From IMG/VR virus record IMGVR_UViG_2791355120_000002, positions 13,121 through 77,120 of that record: 64,000 bases of DNA; one strand, 5' to 3'. Source of the DNA: a virus (taxonomy: Duplodnaviria > Caudoviricetes). The notes under the pieces were generated by a model. It did no database searches, was not told the DNA's origin, and saw only the letters and a list, made by a program, of their open reading frames with translations. Positions 470 through 54,997 of the stretch are shown one piece after another (position 1 is the first letter of the stretch; each line of letters opens with the position of its first letter). The translations under genes and the position numbers were made by a program.

Positions 470-2977
470 ATGGCAAGTGCTCCCACGCTCGACGGCGTGC
501 TCGATTCCGTCCGCCCTCTGATCGAGGCCGGCGCGTCGCTGCATTGGTTGGTCCCCTTTGAGAAGCGGCCGATCGAAAACGAATGGTCGAAGGCTCCGTT
601 TCAGGACGAAGCCGCGCTCCGCAAGTCCTATCGTAGCAACGCCAACATCGGCATCCGGCTCGGCGAGCCGTCGAAGACCGATATTGGCTACCTGCATCTG
701 ATCGACCTGGACATCCGCAAACCGGAACTCGCCGCCGAGGCGTGGGCAAAGCTGCTCGAACTCTGGCCGGCAGCGCGGTCGTTCCCCACTGGCATCAGCG
801 GATCAGGCGGCGAAAGCCGCCATATCTATTTTCTGACCGACAAGCCGTTCCCAAAGAAGAAGCTCGCCAAGTCCACCAACTTCACGATGGTGTGGGACGC
901 GCAGAAGGAGCGCGAGGTTCGCAAATACGATTGGGAGATCGACCTTTACGGCACTGGCGCGCAAGCGGTGCTGCCACCTTCGATCCATCCGAATACCCGC
1001 CTGCCCTATCGTTGGGAACGGCCGCTCGAACTCGATTTCCCGATGATGATGGAGATCGGCTCGTCACAGGTCGAAGCATGGGGCGTCAGCGCCGCGTCGG
1101 CGCAGCCGGAAGACGATGAGGACGACCTTTTCGCGCTCTTGCGCGCAACGCCGATGGACCTGGCGCCCGAGAAGATCGACGAGATCATGCGCGATCTGCC
1201 GGCCGATTGGGTCGACGATCGTGACCAGTGGTTGACAGTCGGCGCCGCGCTGCATCACCAGTTCGAGGGAGCCAACGCGGGCTTCGAGCGGTGGAACGAA
1301 TGGGCGAAGCAGTCGCCGAAGTTCGACGCCAAGGACTCGGCGCGCGTTTGGAAGTCCTTCAAGGGCTCAAAGAATCCCGTCCGCATGGCGACGCTGATCC
1401 AGGCGGTGCAGACGAAGAAGCTCGCTCTCGACCTCGGTCTCGACGACGATGACGACGGTTTCGATTTGCCAGCCATCATTCCCGCCGCGTCGAGCAACGA
1501 CCTTTCCGACTTGCTCGGCACCGACACCAATGACCTTTCCGACCTGCTCGGCGGCTCCCCCCAACCTGCCGCGAAAGCGGACAAAAAGGATGCCGTTGAC
1601 CCTGACTGGTTGAGCAAGCTGCACCGCAACGAGGAAGGCGAGATCAAGAGCACCCTTCCGAACGTCGCCCTGATCGTTGATTGCGATCCGCGCACGCGCG
1701 GCATTGTCGCCTTCAGCGAGTTCAAGCAGACGGTTGTGCTGCGTGGCACCGGTCGCAAGGCATCACGGAAGCGCGACTCAGGACACGATCCGGTCAATCT
1801 CGACGGCCGTCTGTGGGAAGTGCAGGATGAACTCAACGGAGACAGTTGGAGCGACAGCCACGACTTCGCGGTGCGCGCCCTTATCGAGAGCAAGACGCAG
1901 TTGAAGGGCTACGGGATCAAGGTCACTGACCGCGATCTCAAGGGCGGCATCGATATGGCCGCGCAGCGGCGCCGCTTCCATCCGGTCAAAGAACTGATCG
2001 AATCGGTAACATGGGACGGCACCCCGCGCGCCGAGACCCTGTTCATCGACTATCTCGGCTGCGACGACAACCCCTATTACCGCCAGGCGTCGTTGATGAC
2101 CCTAGTTGGCGCTATCGCCCGCGTATATCGCCCCGGCCACAAGTTCGATTTCGTGCCGATCCTCGAAGGCGTGCAGGGCAAAGGCAAATCCACTTTCATC
2201 GAAATTCTCGGCCTGCACTGGTACAACGAACTCACTGGTGAGATCAGCGATCCGAAGCAGATGATCGAGGCCATGCAGGGCTCGTGGATACTGGAAATCG
2301 GCGAACTTTCAGCAATGCAGCGCTCGGAAGTCAACGACCTCAAGGCGTTCGTCAGCCGCACCCATGACAAGGCCCGCCTTGCCTTTGCCAAGCGCGTTCA
2401 GGAATACCCGCGCCAGTGCATCTTTATCGGCTCGACCAATGACCGCGAGTACCTGCGCGACGCGACTGGTGGTCGACGCTTCTGGCCGATCGTCTGCAAC
2501 CTGGAAGGCCAAATCGATAATCCCCGGCTGCGCCGGGAAATTTTGCAGGTGTGGGCCGAGGCGCTGCAAATCTTCCGCGACATGGAGAAGCGCTACCAGG
2601 GCGCACCGTTGCCGCTATTCCTGACCGACGAGGCGGCCAAGACGGCACTCGTCATGCAAGAAAGCCGCCGCGTCGAGAGCGCGGAAGACATCCTTGCTGG
2701 CCAGATTGCGGCTTGGCTCGAACAGCCGATCGGCACCGATGAGCGATTCGACGATCTGGACGTGGACGCCCCGAAGGTCTATCGCCAGGAGACCTGCATT
2801 CGGGAGATTTGGGAGGCCATGCTAGGCCGCGACGGCGCGATTCCGCAGACCGAGAACGTGAAGATCGGCCGCGCCATGCTTCAAGTCGGCTGGCCGCGCT
2901 CTGCCGGCGTCCTGCACGGGCGGGAAATCAACAAAAAATGGGGCAATTGTCGCGTCTACACGAGACCTGAGAAATAG
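470..2977 (+). CDS. Primase-polymerase/helicase (Prim-Pol + PriCT-2 + VapE/VirE P-loop)
   Basis: NIGIRLG..IDLD Prim-Pol motif; WLTVGAALH...WAKQSPKF PriCT-2; LEGVQGKGKST Walker A; YLRDATGGRRFW. Confidence 0.92.
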   Translation: MASAPTLDGVLDSVRPLIEAGASLHWLVPFEKRPIENEWSKAPFQDEAALRKSYRSNANIGIRLGEPSKTDIGYLHLIDLDIRKPELAAEAWAKLLELWPAARSFPTGISGSGGESRHIYFLTDKPFPKKKLAKSTNFTMVWDAQKEREVRKYDWEIDLYGTGAQAVLPPSIHPNTRLPYRWERPLELDFPMMMEIGSSQVEAWGVSAASAQPEDDEDDLFALLRATPMDLAPEKIDEIMRDLPADWVDDRDQWLTVGAALHHQFEGANAGFERWNEWAKQSPKFDAKDSARVWKSFKGSKNPVRMATLIQAVQTKKLALDLGLDDDDDGFDLPAIIPAASSNDLSDLLGTDTNDLSDLLGGSPQPAAKADKKDAVDPDWLSKLHRNEEGEIKSTLPNVALIVDCDPRTRGIVAFSEFKQTVVLRGTGRKASRKRDSGHDPVNLDGRLWEVQDELNGDSWSDSHDFAVRALIESKTQLKGYGIKVTDRDLKGGIDMAAQRRRFHPVKELIESVTWDGTPRAETLFIDYLGCDDNPYYRQASLMTLVGAIARVYRPGHKFDFVPILEGVQGKGKSTFIEILGLHWYNELTGEISDPKQMIEAMQGSWILEIGELSAMQRSEVNDLKAFVSRTHDKARLAFAKRVQEYPRQCIFIGSTNDREYLRDATGGRRFWPIVCNLEGQIDNPRLRREILQVWAEALQIFRDMEKRYQGAPLPLFLTDEAAKTALVMQESRRVESAEDILAGQIAAWLEQPIGTDERFDDLDVDAPKVYRQETCIREIWEAMLGRDGAIPQTENVKIGRAMLQVGWPRSAGVLHGREINKKWGNCRVYTRPEK

Positions 2978-3008
2978 CCTCATTTAGATCATCATCCCTG
3001 TTCGATTT

Positions 3009-3030
3009 GACCCGCTTCGGCGGGTTTTTT
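3009..3030 (+). terminator. Rho-independent terminator
   Basis: GACCCGC-TTCG-GCGGGTT followed by a T run. Confidence 0.85.
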
Positions 3031-3118
3031 CGTGCAAATGAGATACAGAGCATTTGTCGCGAAGATCGAACGTATCGCATCTACGAAAATGGGCTCAAAT
3101 CGATTTCGTGTGGCCCAT

Positions 3119-3856: not shown

Positions 3857-3890
3857 TTGACAATGGGTCAGAGTTTCACCTAAAACGTGA
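3857..3890 (+). promoter_or_regulatory. Sigma70-like promoter with palindromic operator over the -10
   Basis: TTGACA at 3857; TCACCTAAAACGTGA at 3876-3890. Confidence 0.7.
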
Positions 3891-3916
3891 AAGACTAACG
3901 CGGGAGACCTGAGACC

Positions 3917-5590: not shown

Positions 5591-6490
5591 ATGAATGAAG
5601 CTCTTTTGAACGCGTTCCGGTTTCATTTCCGCAACGCCACGGCAGGCTACATCAACGCGAATTGCGCTAAAGCCGGTCCTGCCAAATGGGCGATTGCAGC
5701 CGCTCGGCAAGATGTCGCGGCAGGTAAAGCACGATATCCGCGCGGCCAATATGCGGCCGTCACCTGGCAGCCGCGCGACGACAGTTCTAGGCGCGCCGAG
5801 CGGCTTGCGTTTGTGGAAGATGTCGCGGGCGCCGGCTTGCGGTTTGTCGGCAAGGTGGAAGCTGACACGCCACGCGGCCAGATTTGGAGCGACCGCGACT
5901 CGTGCGGCTGGTATAGCGATCTCGATCAATCGGAAACGATTTATGGAGTCGTGTATCAACTGCCCGGCCGCGACGGCAAAGCGCGCTTTGTGGCAGGCTA
6001 TGCCAGCGACGACGATTGCGACGGGCTGCCGACTCTCGATCTCGGCCATATCTTCGAAAGCGATTCCTGCCGTGGGGACTATTACGGCAACGTGCAAGAG
6101 CATGACGACGCGCGCGACGCTGCCCGAGCGGCCGATAGCATGGCGCAACGTGCGGCCGAGCAAGAGCGGGAATACAAGGCCGCATGGCAGGCCGGCCAGC
6201 GCTATAGCGAACTCGCAGACGAAATTGCGGCAGATAGGAAGGTAGCGCTTGAACTGCTTTCCGAGCGACGGGCAGCACGCGGCAACGGCGTCACTTTCCC
6301 TGCCATTTGCGCGACCATACGGCAACGCGTCGCCGAGATAATGCACGGGATTGCAGACGCTCGGGCAAAACGTGAAAAGCTGGCCGAAGGTGATTTTATC
6401 TCGGATTGGTTGCCGAGTTGGAATTCCAGTGACAAGCGGCTGCAGGCCGCGTTTAACGACGGCGCCGGGCAGACTATTTTTACCTGTTGA
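5591..6490 (+). CDS. Hypothetical phage protein with coiled-coil C-terminal half
   Basis: AGGAG RBS; about 300 aa. Confidence 0.75.
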   Translation: MNEALLNAFRFHFRNATAGYINANCAKAGPAKWAIAAARQDVAAGKARYPRGQYAAVTWQPRDDSSRRAERLAFVEDVAGAGLRFVGKVEADTPRGQIWSDRDSCGWYSDLDQSETIYGVVYQLPGRDGKARFVAGYASDDDCDGLPTLDLGHIFESDSCRGDYYGNVQEHDDARDAARAADSMAQRAAEQEREYKAAWQAGQRYSELADEIAADRKVALELLSERRAARGNGVTFPAICATIRQRVAEIMHGIADARAKREKLAEGDFISDWLPSWNSSDKRLQAAFNDGAGQTIFTC

Positions 6491-6519
6491 CTCGCCTCGC
6501 ACTTTCACGTTTAATGTGA
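6487..6519 (+). promoter_or_regulatory. Promoter plus operator
   Basis: TTGACT at 6487; TCACGTTTAATGTGA at 6505-6519. Confidence 0.7.
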
Positions 6520-6565
6520 AAGTCACGAAACGACGTGACGGCATAGCAGCAAAGGAGTCATCCCT

Positions 6566-6682
6566 ATGAAATACGAATCCCCTTACCGTCGCGGCGATTT
6601 TGCCAACACGCGGGAAGGCCGCGTGAGGCGCGAAAACCGGCTGGCGCGTATCGCTGCCAAGCGCTCTTTTTTCCAGGGCTGA
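6566..6682 (+). CDS. 38-aa basic peptide (below the ORF-track cut-off)
   Basis: AAGGAG RBS; MKYESPYRRGDFANTREGRVRRENRLARIAAKRSFFQG. Confidence 0.6.
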   Translation: MKYESPYRRGDFANTREGRVRRENRLARIAAKRSFFQG

Positions 6683-6685
6683 CCT

Positions 6686-6931
6686 ATGACCGCGCAATTT
6701 GATACACTAGGTTACGCTCAGGCGCTGAAAAGCGCTGGCGTGCCTGCCAAGCAGGCCGAAGCACATGCAAAGGTCGCGCGGGAATACCTAATGCCGGAAC
6801 TCGCAACAAAGGCCGATATTGCCGAACTGCGGCATTTGATTGAGCGGCAAACGTTGCAGCTTACCGTGCGACTCGGCGGAATCATCGTCGTGGGCATTGG
6901 TGTTCTAGCAGCGCTCAAATTGCTGCCGTGA
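6686..6931 (+). CDS. DUF1640/CCDC90-like coiled-coil membrane-anchored protein
   Basis: FDTLGYAQALKSAG...LATKADI...LTVRLG plus C-terminal TM. Confidence 0.8.
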   Translation: MTAQFDTLGYAQALKSAGVPAKQAEAHAKVAREYLMPELATKADIAELRHLIERQTLQLTVRLGGIIVVGIGVLAALKLLP

Positions 6932-7034
6932 TCTAGCGCGGCTTAACGGCCGCGCCTTTCCATCTCTCAAAATCAACCGGGCTTTGCGCCGCGCTTTTCA
7001 GCGCCACGGCCGAGCCATGTCTAAGGAATCTCAC

Positions 7035-8390
7035 ATGACCACGATTAGCGCCACTTACAGCCCGGAAGACAACAAAATCCGGCTCTATGCATCGTCAAGG
7101 CTCGACTCCGAAACCTATGAGCGAGTCAAGGCTGCCGGCTTCGCGTGGGCGCCGCGTCAGGAACTTTTCGTAGCGCCCAAATGGTCGCCGAAACGGGAAG
7201 ACCTGGCGCTTGAACTTGCGGGCGAAATCGAGCCGGAAGAAATGACCCTGGCCGAGCGGGCGCAAGCCAAAGCTGAGCGACTCGACGAACTGGCGCACAA
7301 GCGTCACCGGCAGGCTAATGCCTATAATCGCGCGGCTCAAGAATTGTCCGAAGCCTTTTCGAACGGCCAGCCTATTCTAGTCGGACATCATTCCGAAGCC
7401 AAAGCCCGTAAGACGCAAGCCCGGATGCATTCGGCCATGACCAATGCAAACAAGGCTGCAAAACTGGCCAATTACTGGCTTTACCGTGCCGAAGGAGTCG
7501 AGCGGCACGCGAATTATAAGAACGATCCCCGAGTCCGTGCCGGCCGGATTAAGACGTTGCTTGCCGAGTTGCGCGACATGCAACGCGACATCAACCACGG
7601 CCATTTGTGCTTGCAGGTATGGGAAAAGATTACTCAGGATGAGGCAATCAAGGTTGCGCTCGGCCGCGCCATTAGCACGGGTTCGCTTGCGCCGTGGGAT
7701 TTGTGGGGCAAGGTTGATAAAGGAGAAGTGTCGCCGCAAGAGGCGCGGCAGCAATGTATTGACGCAGCAAATCGGACCATCAAGAGCGATTATCGGCGCC
7801 GCTATATCGAGCACACGCTAAACCGGCTCAGCTATGAACGCGAATTGCTCGGCCCGGTTACTAGGTTCGAAGGCGAGTTGACTCCCGTCATCTTGCAGGC
7901 CTTTGCCCGTGAGCATGGCGCCCACAAGCCAGAAGGCCGGAAAATCGACGCTGAGACCTTCGTTATTGAAAGCTCGGCCGTGCTGCCGTTGCACTTGGCA
8001 AACGATACCGTTTTGGAGCTTTCCGGCGACGAATGGCGCGACCTGATGCAATCGGCTGGATATGAAGTGCCAGCGAAGAAAGACGGCTTGCCGCCAATCC
8101 TGAATCTCAAGTGCAAAAGCCTGCAGGCCAAGCACCGCTATCACCGGGATCAGGTCGAGACTTTCCCCGTGGTCGAGATGACCAAAGCCGAATATGGGAA
8201 AATCTATTCTGAGCAACGCGGGACTCGCCTTTCCCTTTGCGGTGAATTCCGTTTCAAGATTTGCCCGAACCCGCGTCACGACGGGCCGCGCTACATGGCC
8301 GGATGGTGTGCGGTATTCTTGACGGACTCGAAAGCTCATCCGCTGCCCGACTCGGTCGCGGCACTGGAAAGCGCGGAGTCGGTAGCGTGA
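7035..8390 (+). CDS. DUF3560-domain protein
   Basis: ATYSPEDNKIRLY; GQPILVGHHSE motif. Confidence 0.8.
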   Translation: MTTISATYSPEDNKIRLYASSRLDSETYERVKAAGFAWAPRQELFVAPKWSPKREDLALELAGEIEPEEMTLAERAQAKAERLDELAHKRHRQANAYNRAAQELSEAFSNGQPILVGHHSEAKARKTQARMHSAMTNANKAAKLANYWLYRAEGVERHANYKNDPRVRAGRIKTLLAELRDMQRDINHGHLCLQVWEKITQDEAIKVALGRAISTGSLAPWDLWGKVDKGEVSPQEARQQCIDAANRTIKSDYRRRYIEHTLNRLSYERELLGPVTRFEGELTPVILQAFAREHGAHKPEGRKIDAETFVIESSAVLPLHLANDTVLELSGDEWRDLMQSAGYEVPAKKDGLPPILNLKCKSLQAKHRYHRDQVETFPVVEMTKAEYGKIYSEQRGTRLSLCGEFRFKICPNPRHDGPRYMAGWCAVFLTDSKAHPLPDSVAALESAESVA

Positions 8391-9520: not shown

Positions 9521-10062
9521 CCTGGCACACGTTCAACCGCGCTGAGCTTGACGCGTTCAAAGCGACCTGGCATTGCCACGGGCTGCCCGACTCGCTCAAT
9601 TCCCTATCCTTCGAATTCGCCAGCAATGGCGATTTGGTCGACATCGAAGCTAAAGCCCGCAACGGCCGGCCGCTCGACTCGGCAGACTTTGACGGACCGG
9701 CCATGGTCGCGCTTGCCGAAGATGCAAAGCGGCTGGCAGCCGAGCCGATAACTCCCGTTCTATTCCGCGTTCATCGTGCGCCTAAGACACACGGCGACGA
9801 CGTGACGGCCGTTTTCCCTGCCGAGCCACACGACCTAACCGGCCGCTATATGACCTGTTACGCTCATATCGGGCAGCACGGCGCGTGCGGTTGGGAATGG
9901 TATCGCCGCACGCGGCCGGCGACTCCTGCCGAGTATGCCAGTTTGAAGGCTGAGCTTGAGTCGGCGCCCTATGGCTACCGCTTGAAAGTTTGCCAGCGGA
10001 TTCAGCGCGACCATCGCAAAGCCTTTGACGCGGAATTGCAGCGGCTCAGGCGCACCGCATGA
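9517..10062 (+). CDS. Hypothetical protein
   Basis: ATGA overlap; CYAHIGQH motif. Confidence 0.7.
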   Translation: MTWHTFNRAELDAFKATWHCHGLPDSLNSLSFEFASNGDLVDIEAKARNGRPLDSADFDGPAMVALAEDAKRLAAEPITPVLFRVHRAPKTHGDDVTAVFPAEPHDLTGRYMTCYAHIGQHGACGWEWYRRTRPATPAEYASLKAELESAPYGYRLKVCQRIQRDHRKAFDAELQRLRRTA

Positions 10063-11983: not shown

Positions 11984-12529
11984 TTGAAAGCGACCGTCAC
12001 TCCAGCCGAACTGCAACGAAATTTCATCTACGATCCTCATACCGGCTTCATCTACAAACGCTTGGGCGACGGCATCTGGTCAGCGCGCGGTAAACGCTGC
12101 TTCGAAACAGACAACAAGGGCATCTATAAGCAAGGCACCTTTCGCAGGCAGAGTTTCTTTGCACACCGGGTCGTGTGGGCCATCCACTATGGTGAGTGGC
12201 CGGCTGATGGCTATGAAATCGATCACATTAACGGCGACGGGAAAGACAATCGGATCGAAAACCTGCGACTCGTTTCCCATCTCGAAAACTGCCGCAACCT
12301 CGGTCGTCGATTGCCGAAAAACCCCGAGCGTGACAGTGGCGTAAATGGTGTCTACTGGCACAAGCAGTCGAGGAAATGGATGGCCAGGATCAAGATCAAC
12401 GGAAAGTGGATTTATCTCGGCACATACAGCCATCTCGACGAGGCGGTGAGGATACGCAAGGATGCCGAGAAAGCCTACGGATTCCACGCCAACCATGGGG
12501 CTCGACCGGCTAAGCAAAAAGCCGCGTAG
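11984..12529 (+). CDS. HNH endonuclease with AP2-like domain
   Basis: AHRVVW...IDHINGDGKDNRIENLR; SGVNGVYW...YLG. Confidence 0.9.
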   Translation: MKATVTPAELQRNFIYDPHTGFIYKRLGDGIWSARGKRCFETDNKGIYKQGTFRRQSFFAHRVVWAIHYGEWPADGYEIDHINGDGKDNRIENLRLVSHLENCRNLGRRLPKNPERDSGVNGVYWHKQSRKWMARIKINGKWIYLGTYSHLDEAVRIRKDAEKAYGFHANHGARPAKQKAA

Positions 12530-15491: not shown

Positions 15492-15686
15492 ATGATTAGT
15501 CCTGCTAAGAAGATCAAATGCAAAGACTGCAACGGCGCCGGCTTCTACTTGAAGCACGAAGGCCACGGCTACTATCGCGACGGCAGTTTCGGCCACAACG
15601 AATGGGAAGACTGCCGTCCCTGCGGCGGCACTGGCGATGCCCGCGAGCGCTTGGATTTCAAACCCGAGGCGGTTGAAAATGCGTAA
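15492..15686 (+). CDS. Small DnaJ-type zinc-finger protein
   Basis: CKDCNGAG and CRPCGGTG. Confidence 0.65.
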   Translation: MISPAKKIKCKDCNGAGFYLKHEGHGYYRDGSFGHNEWEDCRPCGGTGDARERLDFKPEAVENA

Positions 15687-16197: not shown

Positions 16198-16372
16198 TGG
16201 CGCGCATCAAGATCACGCCGAAGCCACTGCTCGATTTTGCGACCACCGTCATGGCTGACAATGGGAAGCCCGAGCCCGCTTATCACCAGGCCAATGGTTG
16301 GGTCTGCAAGGTCTGGTTCGATGAGCGCAACGCCATCGCCAATCACATCATGCGAGAAGGAATTTTCCTCCC

Positions 16373-21663: not shown

Positions 21664-22041
21664 ATGAAACTCGGCGAACTGCGCGCGGCCATCCGCAAGA
21701 CCAAGGGCAATCCTTGGTTCGACTGCTACCCCTTCCCCGGCACCGACAAGACGTTCCGCTTCTACCTGCAGAAGACGCCACTGCTCGAAGAACTGGAAAA
21801 GGCCTATCCGGGCGGCAAGGGCGCTGAGACGCAACTGAGCTTTGACGCGGAGACCGGCCAACTCAAGCCCGAGAAGCATGACTTCCAGGGCATCAGCAAG
21901 GACAACCCGGCAATCAAGACGCCGGCACCGCCGCATGAGGACGGCCCCGCCCCGAAGAACGATGACGATCTGCTGCTCGACGACGAGCCCGCAGCCGCGC
22001 CTGCCAAACCTACCGACGATCTCAGCGACCTTCTGGTGTGA
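21664..22041 (+). CDS. Hypothetical protein ending DDLSDLLV
   Basis: GGAG RBS; disordered acidic tail. Confidence 0.75.
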   Translation: MKLGELRAAIRKTKGNPWFDCYPFPGTDKTFRFYLQKTPLLEELEKAYPGGKGAETQLSFDAETGQLKPEKHDFQGISKDNPAIKTPAPPHEDGPAPKNDDDLLLDDEPAAAPAKPTDDLSDLLV

Positions 22042-22457
22042 CCATGGACGACGCGGAACTCGGCCTGCGACTGGTCAAGGCGCTGCGTGCCGCCACGGCT
22101 TCTAGGTTGCCCAACGGCAATCCGATCAAGGGCAAGCTGATGAGCCTTGCCCTGAACATCACGCCCGAGGATTGGCAGGTCATCGGCCAGTTCTGGTTTA
22201 CGCATCACTGCAACGTCCAGTGCAGCAAAGACCCCGCTACCGCGCTGCTGACGGTGCTCGAAGCACCGCCAAACCTGACCGATCCCTATGACCCAAAGCA
22301 GCGGCTGCTGATGGCTAAGCCGGTGCTGCGGGAGCACGTCGAGTTCGTCACCGGGAAGCGTGAGCCCGAACCGTCACCGGCGCCGCAGCCGGCGCTGGCT
22401 AACTATCCGACAGCGCAGGAAGACGATGTGCTCGACCTGAGCGAACTGCTCGTGTGA
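22038..22457 (+). CDS. Hypothetical protein ending LDLSELLV
   Basis: GTGA overlap. Confidence 0.7.
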   Translation: MTMDDAELGLRLVKALRAATASRLPNGNPIKGKLMSLALNITPEDWQVIGQFWFTHHCNVQCSKDPATALLTVLEAPPNLTDPYDPKQRLLMAKPVLREHVEFVTGKREPEPSPAPQPALANYPTAQEDDVLDLSELLV

Positions 22458-22705
22458 TGCAACGCTACTCCTACGAGTGGGTAGACCCCGACAGCGGCGA
22501 GGAACATTTCAGCGATGAACTCTGTGCCATCTACGATGCGAAGCGCGGCCTTGAATTTCCCATTGCTTGGGCATGGGACCGGGACGGCGCCGAACTCATC
22601 GTTGATGCGCTGAACCAGGCTCACGAGATGACAGGCAGGGCCGCCACGCTGGTTGCGCTGGCGGTCCATCGAGACAAGTACGATCTGAGCGATTTGCTCG
22701 GCTGA
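22454..22705 (+). CDS. Hypothetical protein ending YDLSDLLG
   Basis: Overlap with the previous stop. Confidence 0.7.
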   Translation: MMQRYSYEWVDPDSGEEHFSDELCAIYDAKRGLEFPIAWAWDRDGAELIVDALNQAHEMTGRAATLVALAVHRDKYDLSDLLG

Positions 22706-22736: not shown

Positions 22737-24059
22737 ATGGGCGGCGCAGTCACACTTCATGCCGGCGACAATCGCCTGAGCCTGCGCCGGCTCATCGACC
22801 AGGGCGTGCGCGTCCATTCGGTCGTGAGCGATCCGCCCTATGCGCTCACCAGTATCACCAAGCGCTTCGGCAAGGCCGGCGCGGCTGCGGCTCGCACGCA
22901 GGGCAACGACGGCAGCTTCGCGCGCCTGTCGAAGGGCTTCATGCAAAAAACTTGGGACGCCACAGGCATCGAGCGCGATCCTGAGTTCTGGCGCCTGGTC
23001 TATGACATCCTTCTGCCAGGCGGCTACGTCTTCGCCTTCTCTGGCGCCCGCTCTGGCCACTGGCAGGCCTGTGCCATGGAGACGGCCGGCTTCATCATGC
23101 ACCCGATGCATGGATGGGTGTACGGTCAGGGCTGGCCGAAGCCCACCTACATCAAGGGCCTGCCCGAGTGGGAAGGATGGGGCTACGGCACGCAGTCGCA
23201 GAAGCCAGCGCTCGAACCTATCTACCTCGGCCAGAAGCCCTTCAGCGAGAAGACCGGGCCGGCGAACGTCCTGAAACACGGCGTCGGCGCATTCAACATC
23301 GGCGGCTGCACAGTCGACGACGGGGAGAACGGTCGTAGGCCGGCCAATCTGATCCTGGACGGATCGTCCGAGGTGATCGACCTGTTCCCGTACACGCGCA
23401 GCGGCGCGCCGGGCGTCATGCGGAAGGGCACGAACGACGGTGCAACCTACGGCGCCGAGAGCCGCGCTCCTGGCACGCCTATGACCGGCTACGGCGATGA
23501 GGGCTCGGCCGCTCGCTTCTTCCACCAGTTCCCGCTTACCGAGGCCGACTACCGGTGGGCAATCGACGCAGGGCTCATCGGAACCGATCTCGGCGATGCG
23601 ACTATCTACAATGCCAAAGCGAGCAAACAGGATCGTTTAGGCAGCAAGCACCCAACCGTTAAGCCAGTGGCCTTGTTGCAGTATCTCATCCGCCACATCA
23701 CACCACCTGGCGGCGTCGTCCTCGATATGTTTGCCGGAAGCGGCACCACCGCAGAAGCCGCGCGGCGCGAGGGTTTCGACTGCATTCTGATGGAAGCCGA
23801 GCCCGAATATCTCGACTTCCTGTGTTCACGCTTCGTTCTCAACCCGGAATATGCTATAGGAATAGATGCCTACAGCACGGTTAACGGAGCGAGAATCAAT
23901 TCTACTGTATCAAAATTAGACATAACTAATGTAGCGAATAAAGAGTTGTGTCTACTTGACATCCTGGGTGATCTGGCGGCTGTAGAAAAGCGCGAGGTTC
24001 AAGTCCCCGGTACGTTTAGATCGTACTCAGGCTACGATCTGACGGAGTTGTTGTCGTAA
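22737..24059 (+). CDS. Orphan amino-DNA methyltransferase (beta class)
   Basis: SDPPY; HPTVKP; VLDMFAGSGTT. Confidence 0.9.
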   Translation: MGGAVTLHAGDNRLSLRRLIDQGVRVHSVVSDPPYALTSITKRFGKAGAAAARTQGNDGSFARLSKGFMQKTWDATGIERDPEFWRLVYDILLPGGYVFAFSGARSGHWQACAMETAGFIMHPMHGWVYGQGWPKPTYIKGLPEWEGWGYGTQSQKPALEPIYLGQKPFSEKTGPANVLKHGVGAFNIGGCTVDDGENGRRPANLILDGSSEVIDLFPYTRSGAPGVMRKGTNDGATYGAESRAPGTPMTGYGDEGSAARFFHQFPLTEADYRWAIDAGLIGTDLGDATIYNAKASKQDRLGSKHPTVKPVALLQYLIRHITPPGGVVLDMFAGSGTTAEAARREGFDCILMEAEPEYLDFLCSRFVLNPEYAIGIDAYSTVNGARINSTVSKLDITNVANKELCLLDILGDLAAVEKREVQVPGTFRSYSGYDLTELLS

Positions 24060-45610: not shown

Positions 45611-46235
45611 TTCTCAGAAGCTCCATCTGGCGGTTGAATTCTTCCTCCACGTCGTCCAGCGTTTCCTGGCTCATGTCTTCGAAGACACCGCCATCGCGTG
45701 ACGCGGCGCTCAACGCCTGATCGACGGACGGGCCATAGAGCAGCCACAGGTTCTTGCCGATCGGCTTCGGCTTATATGCGCCAGCCGGCGCCTCGCCATT
45801 GGTGCGCACCGCCAGGCCGATGTTGTCGTTCTTCAGGCGCATGATGAAGGCGCGCGAGATCGATTTCGTCTGGCCGGGCTTCACCGTCACATTGATCTTG
45901 CCGCCGCGATGGCGGGCACCACCAGTCAGAACAGTCTGCCGGCTGAAGCGGGCGAGCGATGTAGCCTGACCACGACCCTCGATCATGGCAATGAGTGCGC
46001 CACGGCGGGCGCGGGTCTTGACCCACAGTTTCTTGCTCGACGGCGACACGTAAGACGCGGGGAAAGCAACCTGATCGCGCACCAGTCTCGCTGCGCGCGT
46101 GCGACCCTTGTCGGCGGCCTTGTTCAGCGCGCGCACCAGCGCCGTCTCAATCTCGGCTGTCACTTCGCCGATGGCTGGCAGTTGCGCGAACTCGACGATG
46201 ACCAGCGCCGCGCTCAACTGAGGATACCTTCCCAA
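45603..46235 (-). CDS. Tail completion (gpZ-like) protein
   Basis: Basic; ALNKAA...SLARF...LLYGPSVDQ; start uncertain. Confidence 0.7.
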   Translation of the reverse strand: MGRYPQLSAALVIVEFAQLPAIGEVTAEIETALVRALNKAADKGRTRAARLVRDQVAFPASYVSPSSKKLWVKTRARRGALIAMIEGRGQATSLARFSRQTVLTGGARHRGGKINVTVKPGQTKSISRAFIMRLKNDNIGLAVRTNGEAPAGAYKPKPIGKNLWLLYGPSVDQALSAASRDGGVFEDMSQETLDDVEEEFNRQMELLRNG

Positions 46236-46621
46236 ACGTCGCCGGTGGCATCCACGCCAGTCAGGAATTCGGTCAGATCAGCTTGGGAAACCTCGGATAC
46301 CTCGGAATAGAGGTAGCCTTCCCGCCACGGCTTTCCAGGGCCGGTGCGATAGGCTTCGGAGTTTCCAAAGATGACGTAACTGTTGATGAGAACCTTCGGC
46401 AGTTGGGTCTGCTGAAAGACGATACGATTCGTTAGATCGAGCACCGTGGCGCCGTTGCGGAAGTCGTCGGCCTGGTTCTGCGAGGCCACCTGCGCCTTAT
46501 GCAAACGGACGGTGACGCGAACAGGCGTCCCTGCGGCGTGCGTGAGGTACACCGCAGGAATCTCGAAAGTCGCGTGGACGTGTCCAAGCGACTTTCGCTT
46601 CTGTTCGCGCCAGCCGGCCAT
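46214..46621 (-). CDS. Head-tail joining protein
   Basis: Position; VH.TF.IPAVY...VRLH. Confidence 0.7.
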   Translation of the reverse strand: MAGWREQKRKSLGHVHATFEIPAVYLTHAAGTPVRVTVRLHKAQVASQNQADDFRNGATVLDLTNRIVFQQTQLPKVLINSYVIFGNSEAYRTGPGKPWREGYLYSEVSEVSQADLTEFLTGVDATGDVWEGILS

Positions 46622-48856: not shown

Positions 48857-50110
48857 TTAGCCCTTGACCATTGCGAGCGTCTTTGCGGCGCGGCTCACTT
48901 CCGTTTTGTCGGCTTCCTCATCGGCAGAGGCCTCGATGCCGGGATTGCCCGAGCCGCGCATGGCGTCCTTGAGCATTCCCTTCGGCGCGCCGGCACCAGC
49001 CTCGGGCGCAGATTCCTCGGCCAGTTCGCCGATGAAGGCCGCAGCTTCCTCGGCCGACATGCTGGTCTTGAGAGCGGCATTGAGTGCCGCCTTCGGCCGC
49101 TTCTTGCCGGCTTCGGAGCCGAGGATCGCGGTGATGCGAGCAAGGGCCTCGGTGGCGCCCTGCTTGATGCCTTCTGCCAGGCCTTCGGTTTTGCCGGCTG
49201 CCTTAGCGGTGTCGAGATCGGCCTGGGTGAGTTCGGCCATTTGTTCATCTCCTTCTGAGAATGTGGCCTCAAAGGCCGTGATAGCGTCGTCCAGGGCTCC
49301 GATTGCGTCAGCCAAGCCGTTGTCGATCGCCTGTTGAGCCATGAAAGTATGTGCGTCGGTTGCGTCGACCGCTTCCGCCTTCATGTCCCGGTTTCTCGCC
49401 ACCGAAGCGACGAATTGCTCGTGGAATGCATCCACGCGCTCCTGAATCCGCTCGCGCGCCCCCTCGGACAATTTCTCGTAGGGGTTGCCCTCCATCTTGT
49501 CGGGCTTGGAGCGGATGATGTTGGCCGTGATGCCCGCTGCATCGAGCATCTTGGAATACTCGATGGCGACCACGACGACGCCGATCGAACCGACGCCACC
49601 GCTGCGGGAGACGGTGATGCCGTTAGGATCGGCGGCCGAAATGACGTTGTAGGCTGCCGAGTAAGCGTGCTCCGCAAAGCCGCGAATGGGCTTCTTGCCA
49701 CGCAGGGCATACAGCCTATCCACTAGGTCGAAGTTGCCCGCGACCAGGCCACCGCCCGAATTGACAATGTAGGCGATGCCTTTGACGTTGGAGTCGTCCA
49801 CGCCGCGCTTGACGGCCTGGTAGATGTACTCGTAGCCGGTTGCGTAGACACCGAAGGCCCACGGGAAATCGTTCAGCAGCACGCCCTTAACCGGGACGTG
49901 CAGGATGCCGTTCTTCACGACGTAGGGACGATAGCGCGAACGGTAATCGTCCTCGGGAAACCAGAAATCGGCTGCGGCCGACTCGGCGGTCATCTTCTCG
50001 ATTTCATCAATGCGGGCGCCGAGCGCCAGGAGCGATGACTGCAGCCATGCGCCCTGCCCCTCGTCGATGAGCGCCGGCTGGTCCTGAAACTGAGCGATGA
50101 TCGGGTTCAT
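48857..50110 (-). CDS. S49 prohead protease with C-terminal scaffold
   Basis: VNSGGG; AYSAAY; GSIGV; GLADAIG. Confidence 0.9.
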   Translation of the reverse strand: MNPIIAQFQDQPALIDEGQGAWLQSSLLALGARIDEIEKMTAESAAADFWFPEDDYRSRYRPYVVKNGILHVPVKGVLLNDFPWAFGVYATGYEYIYQAVKRGVDDSNVKGIAYIVNSGGGLVAGNFDLVDRLYALRGKKPIRGFAEHAYSAAYNVISAADPNGITVSRSGGVGSIGVVVVAIEYSKMLDAAGITANIIRSKPDKMEGNPYEKLSEGARERIQERVDAFHEQFVASVARNRDMKAEAVDATDAHTFMAQQAIDNGLADAIGALDDAITAFEATFSEGDEQMAELTQADLDTAKAAGKTEGLAEGIKQGATEALARITAILGSEAGKKRPKAALNAALKTSMSAEEAAAFIGELAEESAPEAGAGAPKGMLKDAMRGSGNPGIEASADEEADKTEVSRAAKTLAMVKG

Positions 50111-51795
50111 TGTTTCTTGCCTCCGTCGCTCGGCGTCGCTGACAGCGAATTCATCAGGTTCGGGTCGGCCTGGTCGTAGATCGACGGGTTGCCGTACTTC
50201 TCGTCGAGCGCGCGTTCGCGAGCGATTTGACGGGCGATCTTTCGCCAGTCGCCGCCCGACATTTTCGCGATCTCGATTTCCTTGGTGGACAGGCCGCTCT
50301 TGATCTTGAGGACCGCAGCCTGCGTTTCCTTCAGCGGATCAATCTGACCCTGACCGGCACCGATCCACTCGCACGCGCTGAACGCTTCGGCGTTGAGGCC
50401 ATCGTAGAAGCGGGGCACGCCACGCCGCTTGAAGCATTCGAGTTCGTTGTAGTTGATCGCTTCCTCAAGCCAGAGGCGGTAGATGAAATTGGCCACCTTG
50501 TCGGCAACGATGCGCTTGAGCGACATCATCGTCTTGTAGGTCTCGCCGAGAGCCGCGCGCGCCGACGAGTAGTTGGTCTGCGTGAAGTCGCGAGACAACT
50601 GCTCGTAGGAGACGTTTAGTGCGGCTGCGATATAGCGCAGCAAGCTCTGCTCGAACTTGTCACCGGCCGGGCTGTTCGCACCCGGATTTTGAATCTTGAG
50701 CTTGGTGCCGGGCGCAAAGATCGGAATCTTCGCACCGTCCATGTGCAGATTCTTGGCGGCGCCCGCATACTCGGCGATAGCCGATAGATACGCCTGCATC
50801 CAGGTCGTCGTCGCGTTGCCTTCACCGGCACCGGCACCCAGGGCGGCCGTCACATCCTGCGGGATTTCCGATTCGATCGAAGCCGCGTAGGTGGCCGCGA
50901 CGACCGCCCTCTCCAATTCCGTCCTGCGGAAGTGTTTCGTCATCCGCATTTCGCTGAGCGCCGTGACCATCGCCGCGACGCCGCGCGTCTGGTCGGGACG
51001 CAGTTCCTCGAACACATGGTTGATGACCATGCGTCCCCAAGACTTCCGGGCCGGCACGCGCTTCCAGGTCGGCGCCGTGAAGGAATTCACGCCCGAGCGA
51101 TAGTCGGCGGGATGAGCGCTGCGGATGTAATAGGCGAGCGGTGCGCCATAGGAGTCTAGTTCGACGCCCTTGCGCAAGCGGCTGCCCTTGAACGGCTGAA
51201 AGATGCGGTCGCGAGGATCGGAGAGGCGCGCGGTGTCGATCATCTGAATGGCGCTGGCATACGGCCGGCCATCGTCGAACCACTCGGCCGACTGCAGCAC
51301 CTCGCCGCCCATCAGATGCACGCCAACGGAGAGGCGCACGATATCGGTCAGCGTCTTCCTGCGCGCGGCATCGGGCCAGCACTGCGGGCTTTCTGCCCAC
51401 AGAGTAAACTTGGTCTCGATTTCTTCCTGAGCCTCGGCTTCCCACTGCTCGTCTTCTTTGCCGAACAGAACTTTGGTTTCCGGTTTGGCGTTCAGAAGGA
51501 ACAGGGTTCCGACGATGGAGTCCTTGCGGATCGTCGCGCCGCCCGCGACGTACGCGTCATTGCGAGCCGTATCGATCGAGCGGGCGTCGAGATCGTCCTT
51601 GAGCGGCAGAAGATCGGCATCAGCCGAACGCAGCGGTGGGCGCCAGCCGGCGAGCCGGCTCAGCTTGTCCGCGCCGTCATAGGCGACACCGCCGCCCGCT
51701 GCCACCGCCGAGGCAACGGGCGGCTGCACCGCATGGATCGCCGGGGAGACACCGGCATCCGACCCAAGCAGGTCCGAAAGATCGAGATCGCTCAT
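50107..51795 (-). CDS. Portal protein, lambda family
   Basis: RP.QTRGV; SYEQLSRDFTQTNYSSARA; IDPLKE. Confidence 0.93.
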   Translation of the reverse strand: MSDLDLSDLLGSDAGVSPAIHAVQPPVASAVAAGGGVAYDGADKLSRLAGWRPPLRSADADLLPLKDDLDARSIDTARNDAYVAGGATIRKDSIVGTLFLLNAKPETKVLFGKEDEQWEAEAQEEIETKFTLWAESPQCWPDAARRKTLTDIVRLSVGVHLMGGEVLQSAEWFDDGRPYASAIQMIDTARLSDPRDRIFQPFKGSRLRKGVELDSYGAPLAYYIRSAHPADYRSGVNSFTAPTWKRVPARKSWGRMVINHVFEELRPDQTRGVAAMVTALSEMRMTKHFRRTELERAVVAATYAASIESEIPQDVTAALGAGAGEGNATTTWMQAYLSAIAEYAGAAKNLHMDGAKIPIFAPGTKLKIQNPGANSPAGDKFEQSLLRYIAAALNVSYEQLSRDFTQTNYSSARAALGETYKTMMSLKRIVADKVANFIYRLWLEEAINYNELECFKRRGVPRFYDGLNAEAFSACEWIGAGQGQIDPLKETQAAVLKIKSGLSTKEIEIAKMSGGDWRKIARQIARERALDEKYGNPSIYDQADPNLMNSLSATPSDGGKKQ

Positions 51796-52094: not shown

Positions 52095-54272
52095 CTAAGC
52101 AAGCTTTTCCGCGAGCGCCGCGAAGCTCTTGGACTCCTCTTTGACCGGCTCCGAAGCAGCCGGCGCGGCGCCGCCATACACCATGTCGTTCTCATCCCAT
52201 TCGGCTGCCCATCCTGGCGGGTTCTCCCAATCGAGCCGATCGATGTTAAACGTAACGTAGGGCACCATTTCCTCGAACGGCCGGATAGCCAGGCCGAGCG
52301 CATAATACGCAAGGTCGAATGCCTCGTTGCGCCGCTTCAAGGGATTTTCCCATCCCTTTTCGGTGCGGATTTCGGTCGTCAACTGATTGTAGAACCAGTC
52401 GGGCATCCAGTCGGGATAGCGCAGTATAGCGCCAGCGTTTTCCTCGCTCTCGTCGCCGACGCGGCGCGCCATCATGTTCGAGACGCGATCCTTCATCAGG
52501 TTCGAGTTGAGCAGGATCACGGGCACGTCACCCTTGGCTATGGCCTTCTTTCCCTTCTGACTGGAATCCGGCCAGGTCGTGCGCGCGTGCGGTGCCGTCT
52601 TGGAGGGCTCGCCTTTGATGAGGCAGAAGCGACGATGGAGCCCATCGCCGCGTTTGCGCAGCCGGCGCCAGAAATTATACGCGTGCCCGGTGACACCCTC
52701 GGCACCGCCTGAGTCGCCGCCAGTCGCACGGATGCGCATTCTCCTGCCACTCTCGTCGGCCAGCGGGTAGGTCTTCAAGATGACCTGCTCGATAAGCACG
52801 TCCCAATCTTCCTCGAAGGCGGCCGGATCGATCGGCAGTTTCTCCCCTGCCCCGTTGAGGCGATCTGACAGACGGAGCTTGAATGCGTCGATTACCACTA
52901 GGTCGCCGCTCGCAGTGATGCCATGCACCTGGCAAACGAAGGCCGTCTTCTGCACGTCGACTGTGGCAACCATAAACCGGACGCCATGCGGCACAATCGG
53001 CTCGGTGCCCCAATCCTCGGCCTTGTCTTTCAGGTCTTCCGGCGAGCGCTCGGACAGACGCGAGGCGGGAATGTAGAATGAACCCTGGTCGGTCGTGACG
53101 GTCTTGCGCAGCGGCGCGTCATCGCCCGTGTCTTTGAGCGCCTTCTCCGCGCGCAGGTACTTCTCAACCAACTGGCCCCAATCCTGATACGCGGCGGCCG
53201 GCCCTTTCATCCAGAATGATGCAATGCTCGATCGAGCGGCCTTGAGCCCGTTGCGCTCGATGATCCTGTTTTCGGCCGGCAGCCAGATCATGCCGTCCCT
53301 CACCCACCGGCCGGTGTCGTTCAATTCCTCCTTCATGTGCGGCTCAAGCACACCGCCGCACTGGAAGACGGGGCAGAGCATGTAGGTCTGCTCGCGCGCT
53401 TCCATGATGTCTTCGCTGTCGGGGTAGCGCAACAGCTTGAAGTCGGGTTCGAAGGACTCGCGGCAATGCGGGCAGCACCAATACCAGCGGCGCCGGTCGC
53501 CGCGATTGTATAGCTCGAAGATGCCACGGATCGGTGGCGCCTCGTGTGGACTATGCTTTGGCGGCTGCCACTTCGGGTCTTGGATTTCCTTGTTCGGGTT
53601 GGGCGACGACTCGGCGACGGTCATGCCGAAGCGCTTGAACGTCGTCGTGCGCATCTGCAGAAGGTCGAAGGGGTTGCCTTCGCCATCCACGTTGTCGTCC
53701 ATGCGGTCGTAGTCGATCAGCCATCCGCGCGGCACGGTGATGCCCGATAGGTTGCTCGCGGTGGGATAGGCGAGCAGGAAGCGCATCCCCGACTTGAATT
53801 CCTTGTCGAAGGTGTTGTCATCTTGCCGGCTGGTGAACTGCTCGGCGCGCACATGCGTTGACGCTTCGAGATAGCGCTTGAGATCGCCATTCGACCACTT
53901 GCGCGCGTTCTCGCGGTCCATGTGGATGTAGAGCATGTCGCCCGGATCGGCCTTGACGGTGTGCGTCAGCCAGCCGAGGCTCATCATGGTCTTGCCGGTA
54001 CGCGCCGGCCCGACGAACACCATGCCCTGATAGTCGAGGCTGGTGAGGATGTTCATAGGCTCGACGAGATAGGGCGTCTTCTTCGCGGACCACGGGACGC
54101 TGTGGCCGCTGCCGCCGCCGATCCGCATGTACTTCTCAGCAGCCTCGGAGACCGTCAAGACTTCCTGCGGGGTCAGGCTTTCGAAGCCCTTCACCAGCAA
54201 TTCGTCGAGCGTTTGATATGGGGCTGCGTCGATCAGGTCATTGATCGACGGCGGGCGCATTCTCGCGGTCAT
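52095..54272 (-). CDS. Terminase large subunit (lambda gpA family)
   Basis: TPYLVEPM; GPARTGKT; GDRRRW...CPHC; TVDVQ; DSGG; RNEAFDL. Confidence 0.93.
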   Translation of the reverse strand: MTARMRPPSINDLIDAAPYQTLDELLVKGFESLTPQEVLTVSEAAEKYMRIGGGSGHSVPWSAKKTPYLVEPMNILTSLDYQGMVFVGPARTGKTMMSLGWLTHTVKADPGDMLYIHMDRENARKWSNGDLKRYLEASTHVRAEQFTSRQDDNTFDKEFKSGMRFLLAYPTASNLSGITVPRGWLIDYDRMDDNVDGEGNPFDLLQMRTTTFKRFGMTVAESSPNPNKEIQDPKWQPPKHSPHEAPPIRGIFELYNRGDRRRWYWCCPHCRESFEPDFKLLRYPDSEDIMEAREQTYMLCPVFQCGGVLEPHMKEELNDTGRWVRDGMIWLPAENRIIERNGLKAARSSIASFWMKGPAAAYQDWGQLVEKYLRAEKALKDTGDDAPLRKTVTTDQGSFYIPASRLSERSPEDLKDKAEDWGTEPIVPHGVRFMVATVDVQKTAFVCQVHGITASGDLVVIDAFKLRLSDRLNGAGEKLPIDPAAFEEDWDVLIEQVILKTYPLADESGRRMRIRATGGDSGGAEGVTGHAYNFWRRLRKRGDGLHRRFCLIKGEPSKTAPHARTTWPDSSQKGKKAIAKGDVPVILLNSNLMKDRVSNMMARRVGDESEENAGAILRYPDWMPDWFYNQLTTEIRTEKGWENPLKRRNEAFDLAYYALGLAIRPFEEMVPYVTFNIDRLDWENPPGWAAEWDENDMVYGGAAPAASEPVKEESKSFAALAEKLA

Positions 54273-54997
54273 TCATCACCCGGCAGATCAGGCGGCGGGC
54301 GCTTGTCCGTGCCTTCAAGCTCCTTGGCTATCTCCTGCGAATGAGCAGTCACCTTCTGCCAGGTGCGCGCTTTGGTTTCGAGCGCTTCCTTGACTTGGAC
54401 ATTCAGGTCGGCCACGGCCGCCAGCATGAACTTGTACTGCTCGTCGCTCAGCCGGTCGCGGCCGGGCATGTTCTCGATCCAGAGCTTGGTTTCCTGCCGG
54501 ATCAGCATGGCCACGCGCGCGAAGGTCATGAGCACGTCTTCGTCGTGCCAAAGCTGCCCGGCAGCCGTGAGCGCCCGGATACGGGCGTTGGTCATCTCCC
54601 AATAGGCCTTGGAGACGATCGGCGGCAGCGACGCCTGGTTCTGCTGCGCCAGCCAGTCCTCAATGCTGCCCTGCGGCGGGATCAGATAGGACATGCCCGT
54701 CAGGAAGTCGTACAGCGGCTGCTGCTTCCCTGCGTGCGTGACGAACGAGTGAATCGGGCACTTTTCGAGCCGCTTCTGAATTTGCTTCGGCTGAACGCCG
54801 AGGATGTTTGCGAAGAAGGTCACGCCAACCGGACGCCGAAAGGCCGTGTAGTGCGGCAGGCTGTTTGAAGCTTGCTCTTGCAAGCGCCTGGCGGCTTCTT
54901 CCTTGGTCGGCCGGCCGCGCTTCGGACGCGCTATCTCGGGCTCGGATGTCGGCTCGTCGTCGCCGAGCAGGTCCGAGAGATCGCTGTCATCGGTCAT
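54269..54997 (-). CDS. Terminase small subunit (DUF1441-like)
   Basis: Coupled to TerL; LPP...KAYW......AG.LW. Confidence 0.8.
   Translation of the reverse strand: MTDDSDLSDLLGDDEPTSEPEIARPKRGRPTKEEAARRLQEQASNSLPHYTAFRRPVGVTFFANILGVQPKQIQKRLEKCPIHSFVTHAGKQQPLYDFLTGMSYLIPPQGSIEDWLAQQNQASLPPIVSKAYWEMTNARIRALTAAGQLWHDEDVLMTFARVAMLIRQETKLWIENMPGRDRLSDEQYKFMLAAVADLNVQVKEALETKARTWQKVTAHSQEIAKELEGTDKRPPPDLPGDE

Follow-up and report, generated by a model that had tools for sequence, protein, structure and literature searches.

Short terminal peptides shared by different proteins of one phage are known from few cases, namely the clamp epitope of T4 on three proteins, the capsid targeting sequences of T4 and the acidic tails of T7 on two proteins. 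The cargo-loading peptides of encapsulins are likewise short, terminal and set on flexible linkers, and they load unrelated cargo on a shell of the HK97 fold. In T4, gp43, gp55 and gp33 are described to have a common hydrophobic and acidic C-terminal peptide that binds the sliding clamp, is interchangeable between these proteins and also works at an internal position (PMC2988020). The N-terminal 22 residues of the lambda portal gpB are removed in maturation, and the function of this leader is stated to be unknown (PMC3224144). Here, a peptide of the form DL[ST][DE]LL, called the tag in the following, was studied in the IMG/VR record IMGVR_UViG_2791355120_000002. The analysed window is the right-hand 64 kb of this 77,120-bp virus record. 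One peptide spans integration, replication, recombination, methylation and packaging in this one temperate phage. With about twelve proteins from five functional modules as carriers, and with positions at both termini and in linkers, the tag system differs from the closest described ones in its sequence and its breadth. No description of the hexapeptide 'DLSDLL' was found in the full-text literature, subscription journals and supplements being outside the search, which agrees with the first, sequence-only reading of the window, whose author knew of none. Literature searches for a short linear motif combined with a bacteriophage terminase or portal hub gave nothing relevant among the papers listed.

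Like the T4 clamp epitope, the tag is a short peptide, hydrophobic and acidic, that is borne by functionally different proteins on linkers which are flexible and variable in sequence (PMC2988020). It differs in that T4 has three such proteins, a known partner (gp45) and a polymerase that carries the peptide, whereas here about twelve proteins are tagged, the polymerase is not and no clamp gene was found in the scans. The T4 capsid targeting sequences are also one short peptide on unrelated proteins, directed to one phage structure (PMC9026906). However, they are strictly N-terminal, cleaved at a defined site and found on internal head proteins, while the tag is mostly C-terminal or internal and is carried by enzymes of DNA metabolism and by the small terminase subunit (TerS). 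The leader of lambda gpB stands on the same protein family as the tagged portal and, like the tag there, precedes the conserved core as the outermost N-terminal segment; in contrast to the tag, it is not acidic, and within the first 6 kb of lambda that were examined it was seen on the portal only. The tails of T7 gp2.5 and Enc34 ORF6, proteins that bind single-stranded DNA (SSBs), and also that of T7 gp4, are acidic with hydrophobic end residues and serve protein contacts in the replisome. Unlike these, the tag keeps to a fixed pattern of leucines, is found at N-termini and in linkers as well and differs in sequence from the SSB tail of this phage, which is itself acidic and ends in hydrophobic residues. 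The ParA-binding motif of ParB is a flexible N-terminal peptide too, and its second half, L-x-A-L-[LIM]-G-D, is tag-like. In the tag, however, acidic residues replace R and G, only the half L12-x-x-L-L-G is common, and the occurrence is not confined to hosts with ParAB or PopZ. In contrast to the proteins loaded by encapsulin peptides, the carriers of the tag are not known cargo.

Occurrence of the tag in the phage genome

Six-frame translation of the window gave exactly 8 matches to DL[ST][DE]LL, which are spread over 7 open reading frames (ORFs), and none in non-coding frames. All 8 sites listed in the sequence-only reading were thereby recovered; the 'six' proteins of its title are a miscount for seven ORFs. 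On the plus strand, two copies of DLSDLLG (1499-1519 and 1532-1552) lie in the interdomain linker of an 835-residue primase-helicase (470..2977), to which Pfam assigned Prim-Pol, PriCT-2 and VapE. The four other plus-strand copies are C-terminal, with a single residue between the DL[ST][DE]LL match and the stop. They are DLSDLLV at 22018-22038 in a 125-aa protein (21664..22041), with the last residue directly before the stop, DLSELLV at 22434-22454 in a 139-aa protein (22038..22457), DLSDLLG at 22682-22702 in an 83-aa protein (22454..22705) and DLTELLS at 24036-24056 in an N6/N4 DNA methyltransferase (22737..24059, PF01555). The three small proteins matched no Pfam or PHROG family. In the related provirus G001, a 79-aa protein at the position of the 83-aa protein also ends in a tag.

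On the minus strand, DLSDLLG is N-terminal in the lambda-family portal (50107..51795, PF05136), where it occupies 51763-51783 and is followed by a disordered linker of approx. 30 residues, and in TerS (54269..54997, PHROG 141), where it occupies 54962-54982. In both proteins the six-residue match (51766-51783 and 54965-54982) covers residues 6-11 counted from the ATG at 51795 and 54997, respectively. A ninth strict copy was found outside the window at the N-terminus of an SNF2-type helicase (genome positions 3874-3891, minus strand). N-terminal copies are thus present only on portal, TerS and helicase, and half of the 8 copies in the window are C-terminal.

Judging from the codons, selection is on the peptide and not on the DNA, as the sequence-only reading had proposed. 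Synonymous codons differ at most positions of the tag copies: Ser is encoded by TCC, TCG or AGC and hence from two codon families, Thr by ACG and Leu by CTT, CTC, CTG or TTG. As the codons differ among the copies, which are unlike at the nucleotide level, a DNA repeat was rejected. Chance was rejected by within-protein shuffles. The whole genome (116 called ORFs with 23,264 residues) contains 9 strict copies, compared with 0.012 expected from composition. Among 20,000 shuffles, 19,746 had no copy, 251 had one, 3 had two and none had three or more, so that the comparison with shuffled sequences suggested at the outset came out clearly in favour of an enrichment. The motif was defined after it had been seen and the exact figure is therefore flattering, but the excess is far too large for this bias to matter. 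Gene calls for the whole genome came from a crude script based on GC3 (the GC content of third codon positions), and counts out of 116 ORFs depend on these calls.

Looser copies form the C-terminal ends of the integrase, an SLOG-family protein and a 3'-5' exonuclease, all encoded outside the window. The pattern L[LI][GVASI] directly before the stop ends 9 of the 116 ORFs (0.5 in shuffles), among them these three, a small protein at the position of a nuclease gene and a 109-aa protein, the latter two also outside the window. All tagged proteins with a recognisable family act on DNA. Tail, lysis and capsid-shell proteins are devoid of the tag, except for one doubtful stretch in a 135-aa head-tail protein (46214..46621, minus strand), in which a looser DLTEFL (46262-46279) stands 15 residues before the end. 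A related Manganibacter prophage and the relative RcPutin have a similar stretch, and DLTEFL is perhaps no more than an element of the fold. Residues 10-17 of a 198-aa ORF (58116-58712, plus strand), a gene call that is uncertain and has weak support, read D-E-V-L-E-L-L-G and are tag-like.

The tags lie in acidic segments rich in proline and alanine. An AlphaFold2 model of the portal, calculated with 115 sequences, had a mean pLDDT score (predicted local distance difference test) of 82.5, while residues 1-5 and 11-42 scored below 50. This is in line with the disordered termini and linkers that had been claimed for the tag copies. The hydrophobic positions 2, 5 and 6 of the six would form one face of a short helix.

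Conservation and spelling of the tag in relatives

The position of the tag is kept in relatives of the portal, TerS, the primase linker and the methyltransferase, which was the outcome expected by the sequence-only reading for a functional peptide. A tag-like peptide was present within the first 30 residues of 102 of the 120 best portal homologues, and 62 matched a stricter pattern. Homologues without it are mostly truncated records or have late start calls. The portal record P0140 from Manganibacter starts 8 residues late in comparison to locus L022 (12911-14596) and has lost the N-terminal tag, and several further portal records look truncated in the same manner. Annotation can learn from P0140, where the start codon in the database removed the tag from the portal.

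Among 22 related loci with both genes matched, which were read by eye, the N-termini of both TerS and portal were tagged in 11, the portal only in 3 and neither in 8; in one of the portal-only loci TerS runs off the contig. In all 8 untagged loci the large terminase subunit (TerL) is at most 45% identical to the one studied here, yet two tagged loci are equally distant. In the TerS alignment, the aspartate of the tag and its second core leucine are among the few invariant or nearly invariant columns. TerS also shows a basic stretch with G-R-P approx. 15 residues after the tag (54900-54961, minus strand), which could be read as AT-hook-like. Such a stretch follows the tag by 5-18 residues in 6 of 10 aligned TerS sequences (not in L023, L024, L027 and L004), and in the TerS of a Klebsiella phage tag and basic stretch are in reversed order. 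An excisionase-like 72-aa gene upstream of TerS was the only gene that tracked the tagged loci in a gene-content correlation around TerL; it was judged unlikely to be a hub.

For the methyltransferase, a regular expression for the tag matched within the last 40 residues of 16 out of 33 IMG/VR orthologues (1.5 expected from shuffled tails), and matches were 8.5 times denser in the tails than in the enzyme bodies. Read by eye, 21 of the 33 were tagged, often twice. The primase linker is tagged in four of five relatives, namely in all three from IMG/VR and in G001; no linker tag was found by regular expression in the primase of RcPutin. The C-terminus of the integrase is tagged in two of three relatives. 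Provirus G001, whose TerL is 55% identical, is tagged on TerS, the portal, the primase linker and the C-terminus of the integrase, further on a small protein encoded upstream of the methyltransferase, and three times on the methyltransferase itself. In RcPutin, TerS, portal and integrase are tagged, and the exonuclease, like other proteins, has a shorter E-L-L-[VI] end. The Manganibacter prophage has only structural genes in common with the phage studied here, and both the TerS and the portal tag are kept. Pseudomonas phage Kaya has a related polymerase (38.7% identity), another terminase and portal, and no common tag. From these two patterns, the tag tracks the head and packaging module and not the replication module. 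Tagged relatives infect Klebsiella, Pseudomonas, Rhizobium and Rhodobacter. A sample of Sphingomonadales contained the portal in only 3 of 301 genomes.

The spelling of the tag drifts between phages and is often matched within one phage, as found by reading the sequences by eye. TerS and portal of locus L004 share an identical 8-residue peptide, in which three of the eight codons differ, and both proteins of locus L031 have D-D-F-A-x-L-M. I-D-D-L-L-G occurs three times in locus L025. A small ORF between TerS and TerL of this Rhodobacteraceae prophage (approx. 9565-10001, plus strand) ends in I-D-D-L-L-G plus I-E-D-L-L at the stop. In the Klebsiella phage YMC16/01/N133, D-L-I-G, preceded by D-D or E, is found on TerS, portal and methyltransferase, and [DE]-x-L-[VI] is terminal on a DUF2800-like protein, an SSB-like protein, TerS and others. 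E-L-E-D-L-I is found in Pseudomonas phage Ppu-503 at the portal N-terminus and at a helicase C-terminus. In Rhizobium phage RHph_X2_30, D-F-x-D-I-[FL]-G is common to the N-terminus of TerS and a stretch near the C-terminus of the portal; close to its N-terminus the portal has E-F-A-D-V-L-G. The habit extends over a large set of Casjensviridae-like phages and prophages from alpha- and gammaproteobacteria, all of them with their own spelling.

Salmonella phage Chi (NC_025442) has another shared ending. Seven of its unrelated proteins (gp2, gp4, gp6, gp7, gp11, gp18 and gp42) have D-[DE]-V as their last residues, which are D-E-V in six. Primase, exonuclease, SSB and TerS are among the seven; the helicase has D-D-E-E at its end. 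This tail is another phage-wide terminal tag within the same virus family, distinct from the one studied here. A ribosome-binding-site artefact was rejected for it, as the tails are encoded by GA[CT] GAA GTN stop with all four Val codons and mostly no gene start is nearby.

Candidate partners of the tag

The tag is very probably a docking motif for a shared partner. It would be an acidic, leucine-rich short linear motif, D-hydrophobic-x-[DE]-L-hydrophobic-G, with the spacing of an amphipathic helix that offers one face. Disordered tethers would hold it at N-termini, C-termini or domain linkers, and unrelated DNA-handling proteins, namely the integrase, the SNF2 helicase, the exonuclease, the primase-helicase, the methyltransferase, several small proteins, TerS and the portal, would dock via the tag on one common partner. 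Since the spelling is matched within a phage, the partner would co-evolve with the tag and is most likely phage-encoded. We infer that the tag itself binds and that the partner is a single one, and propose that this partner is located in the DNA-packaging vertex, being the portal or TerL. The tag would then tether TerS and the DNA-processing enzymes at the place where concatemeric DNA is cut and pumped, and the N-terminal copy of the portal would act before or during prohead maturation, like the leader of lambda gpB. That the portal/TerL machine is the partner is possible rather than probable. The reading as a whole, a docking peptide with one co-evolving phage partner that most likely resides in the packaging vertex, is tentative, with chances somewhat below even. 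Of the shared hub that the sequence-only reading had suggested, one docking partner fits the conserved positions and the matched spelling within phages, whereas PopZ and the clamp, which it had named, are disfavoured, as is ParA.

The portal aligned with lambda gpB in BLASTP with 34% identity, starting at lambda residue 26 and at residue 34 of the portal studied here. The lambda leader is annotated as residues 1-22 and contains T-L-L-G-P-D-G; the portal of G001 reads D-L-L-G-P-D-T-G. By this alignment, the portal tag is in a segment positionally equivalent to the cleaved leader of lambda gpB. In the interaction table for lambda, the N-terminus of A is listed with Nu1 and its C-terminus with B (PMC3224144). 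TerL is the one protein known to bind both TerS and portal, which favours a partner in the packaging vertex. The T4 packaging motor is described as a meeting point as well, gp17 binding gp20, gp32 and gp55 (PMC9026906).

TerL (52095..54272, minus strand; gpA type by Pfam) has no strict tag and is a candidate either for the partner or for a relative of the tag. Its C-terminal tail (52098-52127) and its N-terminal residues 9-26 show the tag-like pattern hydrophobic-x-x-L-hydrophobic, with two relaxed tag matches at the N-terminus. Before the stop, this TerL and all 25 relatives examined have a C-terminal tail that closes with hydrophobic-x-x-L-[AG]-x-x-L-x, and several of the tails begin with D-L-S-D-L or E-D-L-G, close to the tags of the same phage. 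The tail follows an acidic linker and is conserved also in the clade that lacks tags on TerS and portal. Judged from lambda gpA, it should be a portal-docking tail. In an extended form of the proposal, which we regard as rather doubtful, a groove of the dodecameric portal or of TerL would accept any acidic helix of the form hydrophobic-x-x-L-hydrophobic, so that enzyme tails, TerS and TerL tails would compete for it in a self-assembly code. The vertex would be a 12-seat workbench for copying, trimming, methylating and pumping DNA, and the portal copy a removable pseudo-ligand that closes the groove until the prohead is mature. If true, this would also explain the long-unexplained leader of lambda gpB.

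Several observations weigh against a partner in the packaging vertex. The integrase acts without packaging and has no obvious business at the portal; its tag and the pattern in Chi are the observations that are least well explained. Chi lacks the tag, its portal being untagged despite the same head module, and its shared tail looks more like a replisome code. In the AlphaFold2 model of the portal the tag is disordered and not docked on the body, though a monomer cannot show a site between subunits. If the portal copy acts during packaging, the removal of the leader in lambda is awkward by analogy. The likeness between TerL tail and tag is weak in this phage, with F-A-A-L-A in the tail and L-S-D-L-L in the tags. 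Finally, the matched spelling within phages could stem from tag DNA copied between genes and not from co-evolution with a partner.

Other explanations place the tag elsewhere in the phage. As a capsid-targeting or prohead-core leader it would bind the scaffold/protease core, equivalent to lambda C/Nu3, nucleate the head on the portal, bring tagged enzymes into the prohead for injection and then be cleaved. The candidate partner of the portal tag would be the prohead protease/scaffold gene at the lambda C/Nu3 position (48857..50110, minus strand), which is 49% identical to an RcPutin gene annotated as 'capsid maturation protease' and lies in the same gene order as in lambda. Such a role would suit the position of the portal tag, equivalent to that of the cleaved lambda leader, and the way in which the tag tracks the head module in the Manganibacter prophage. 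In addition, lambda Nu3 is required for incorporation of B and an interaction of C with B is reported (PMC3224144), a 10-residue targeting peptide is common to unrelated internal proteins of T4 (PMC9026906), and the methyltransferase, nucleases and small proteins could be useful anti-defence cargo. We nevertheless consider it unlikely: TerS is not expected within a capsid yet is tagged in half of the related loci, the cargo would include the primase-helicase with 835 and the helicase with 495 residues, and most tags are, unlike the T4 sequences, C-terminal or internal. A replisome code of the T7 type, in which acidic tails with hydrophobic ends dock on the family-B polymerase or in the groove of the T7-type SSB and the same handle couples TerS, portal and methyltransferase to replication, is improbable as well. 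Lambda has the portal leader and no phage polymerase, Kaya has the polymerase family and no tags, and the Manganibacter prophage keeps its TerS and portal tags while no polymerase homologue was found on its 93,940-bp contig; moreover, the SSB tail of the phage studied here differs from the tag. This has to be set against the fact that the polymerase is the sole replication protein that is never tagged (here, in G001, RcPutin, Chi and the Klebsiella phage). In Chi and the Klebsiella phage the SSB tail is common to TerS, primase and exonuclease, and the exonuclease tail is tag-like here and SSB-like in G001. The SSB is of the Enc34/T7 gp2.5 type, whose acidic tail is described to mediate contacts and to sit in the groove of a neighbour in the crystal (PMC5686142). 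Tags that bind each other on multimeric rings (portal, TerS, helicase) would gather the machinery into an assembly or condensate without any hub. Such stickers would account for the matched spelling within phages without a conserved hub, for duplicate tags (two in the primase, two or three in methyltransferases, two in some portals) and for the tag-like ends of TerL. However, a helix of 6-7 residues flanked by acidic residues should repel its like, and we know of no precedent for a short acidic self-binder, which makes this explanation very unlikely.

A hub of the host, present in alpha- and gammaproteobacteria, was weighed in the same way, with the beta sliding clamp as an example. The bacterial clamp-binding consensus has a leading glutamine, which is missing from all 9 strict and 3 looser copies, and the C-termini of the polymerases are untagged. 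The spelling varies strongly among phages of similar hosts and matches within phages, which a conserved pocket would not demand, and the tag pattern was found only at background density in the Manganibacter host genome (4.8 Mb, 17 matches in comparison to 9 for the reversed control), so that there was no host-wide enrichment. No phage-encoded clamp or ParA family was detected in Pfam scans of 50 phage proteins, and a tblastn search with the Kaya gene annotated as 'putative replicative clamp', which adjoins the polymerase relative of Kaya and would favour a clamp, gave no match with E under 0.1 in the genomes of this phage, G001, RcPutin, Chi or the Klebsiella phage. As no clamp family appeared in the scans and the polymerase is never tagged, the clamp is disfavoured. 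A host sliding clamp does exist, the tagged proteins of known function all act on DNA and their flexible terminal or linker placement is typical of clamp ligands; still, a host hub is distinctly unlikely. The Kaya clamp gene (gene 030, 15523-16653) itself ends in an SSB-like acidic E-D-D-I-P-F. Mimicry of the ParB N-terminus for docking on ParA or MipZ, or binding to PopZ as a client, in alphaproteobacterial hosts is highly unlikely. In four hosts of related prophages, the N-terminus of the chromosomal ParB reads L-G-R-G-L-[ASN]-A-L-[ILM]-G-D, its second half being tag-like, and A-L-M of a Sphingomonas prophage matches the ParB of its host, albeit as a single case. To our knowledge, enterobacterial chromosomes have no parAB. 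ParB's N-terminal motif is described as the docking site of ParA, but the tag is without L8, R10 and G11, which are needed for ParA binding in P. aeruginosa (PMC9927451). PopZ is known as a hub and binds its clients through the H1 helix (PMC12999525); the PopZ family (PF10691) was found in all four alphaproteobacterial hosts, compared with one of 14 control genomes, that of Caulobacter. As phages of Klebsiella, Pseudomonas and Rhizobium are tagged, ParB mimicry and PopZ were down-weighted, and with the first two of these hosts ParA and PopZ are disfavoured as general hubs. Moreover, the alphaproteobacterial prophages L029 and L039 of a more distant terminase clade have no tag. The PopZ linkers of three of the four hosts contain a tag-like D-[DE]-[VI]-L-E-L-[ST]-E, which is repeated in Roseibium and absent in Manganibacter. 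A shared degron for timed proteolysis, the second option offered by the sequence-only reading, would suit the terminal placement but fits poorly with N-terminal tags on the structural portal and on TerS, which are poor candidates for it. An acidic tail that acts in cis and tunes the DNA binding of its own protein would have a parallel in Enc34 ORF6, where removal of the tail permits binding of double-stranded DNA (PMC5686142). Here, the same precise peptide is found on unrelated folds, which speaks against action in cis, and its occurrence at N-termini, C-termini and internal sites speaks against both; they are most improbable.

If the proposed partner in the packaging vertex were found, it would show a spatial coupling of genome processing to packaging. 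The tag would be a portable means of sending proteins to that site, and the N-terminal leader of the lambda portal would become directly testable.

Phage type, host and other genes

The phage has an integrase, an excisionase-like gene, an SSB of the Enc34/T7 type (PF10991), a DUF2800 nuclease, a divergent family-B polymerase, a gene at the position of VRR-NUC and the tagged SNF2 helicase. Its packaging and head genes comprise a large terminase of the gpA type, a portal of the lambda type and a head decoration protein. The closest cultured relatives are Rhodobacter capsulatus phages of the RcD cluster, which belong to the family Casjensviridae in GenBank and have a TerL with 66% identity. RcD-cluster phages are described as cos phages with 12-base overhangs, and the paper on them mentions neither a motif nor mass spectrometry (PMC8601537). 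The host is probably Mesorhizobium or a neighbour, because the closest named portal homologues (85-92% identity) come from Mesorhizobium genomes.

The polymerase gene lies at 5918-7954 (minus strand) in locus L021. The family-B polymerases of this phage, G001 and RcPutin end in two alanines after hydrophobic residues, an ending reminiscent of a protease tag at the C-terminus. A GapR-like DNA-binding protein (21345-21626, plus strand; PF10073, E 3e-34), which is also present in G001 with 78% identity, is encoded immediately upstream of the three small tagged proteins. The N-terminal domain of dATP/dGTP diphosphohydrolases was found at 20510-21049 (plus strand; PF18909, E 8e-19) and hints at manipulation of the nucleotide pool or at a modified base. 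The early region contains, without tags, a HerA-like ATPase (10059-11219), a DUF3560 protein (6984-8390) and an HNH-AP2 endonuclease (11984-12529), all on the plus strand. Near the right end of the record, a protein with a HipA-like kinase domain (59616-60413, minus strand) and an overlapping upstream partner (58690-59619, minus strand) are encoded; the prophage may carry the two as a pair with a toxin-antitoxin or defence function.

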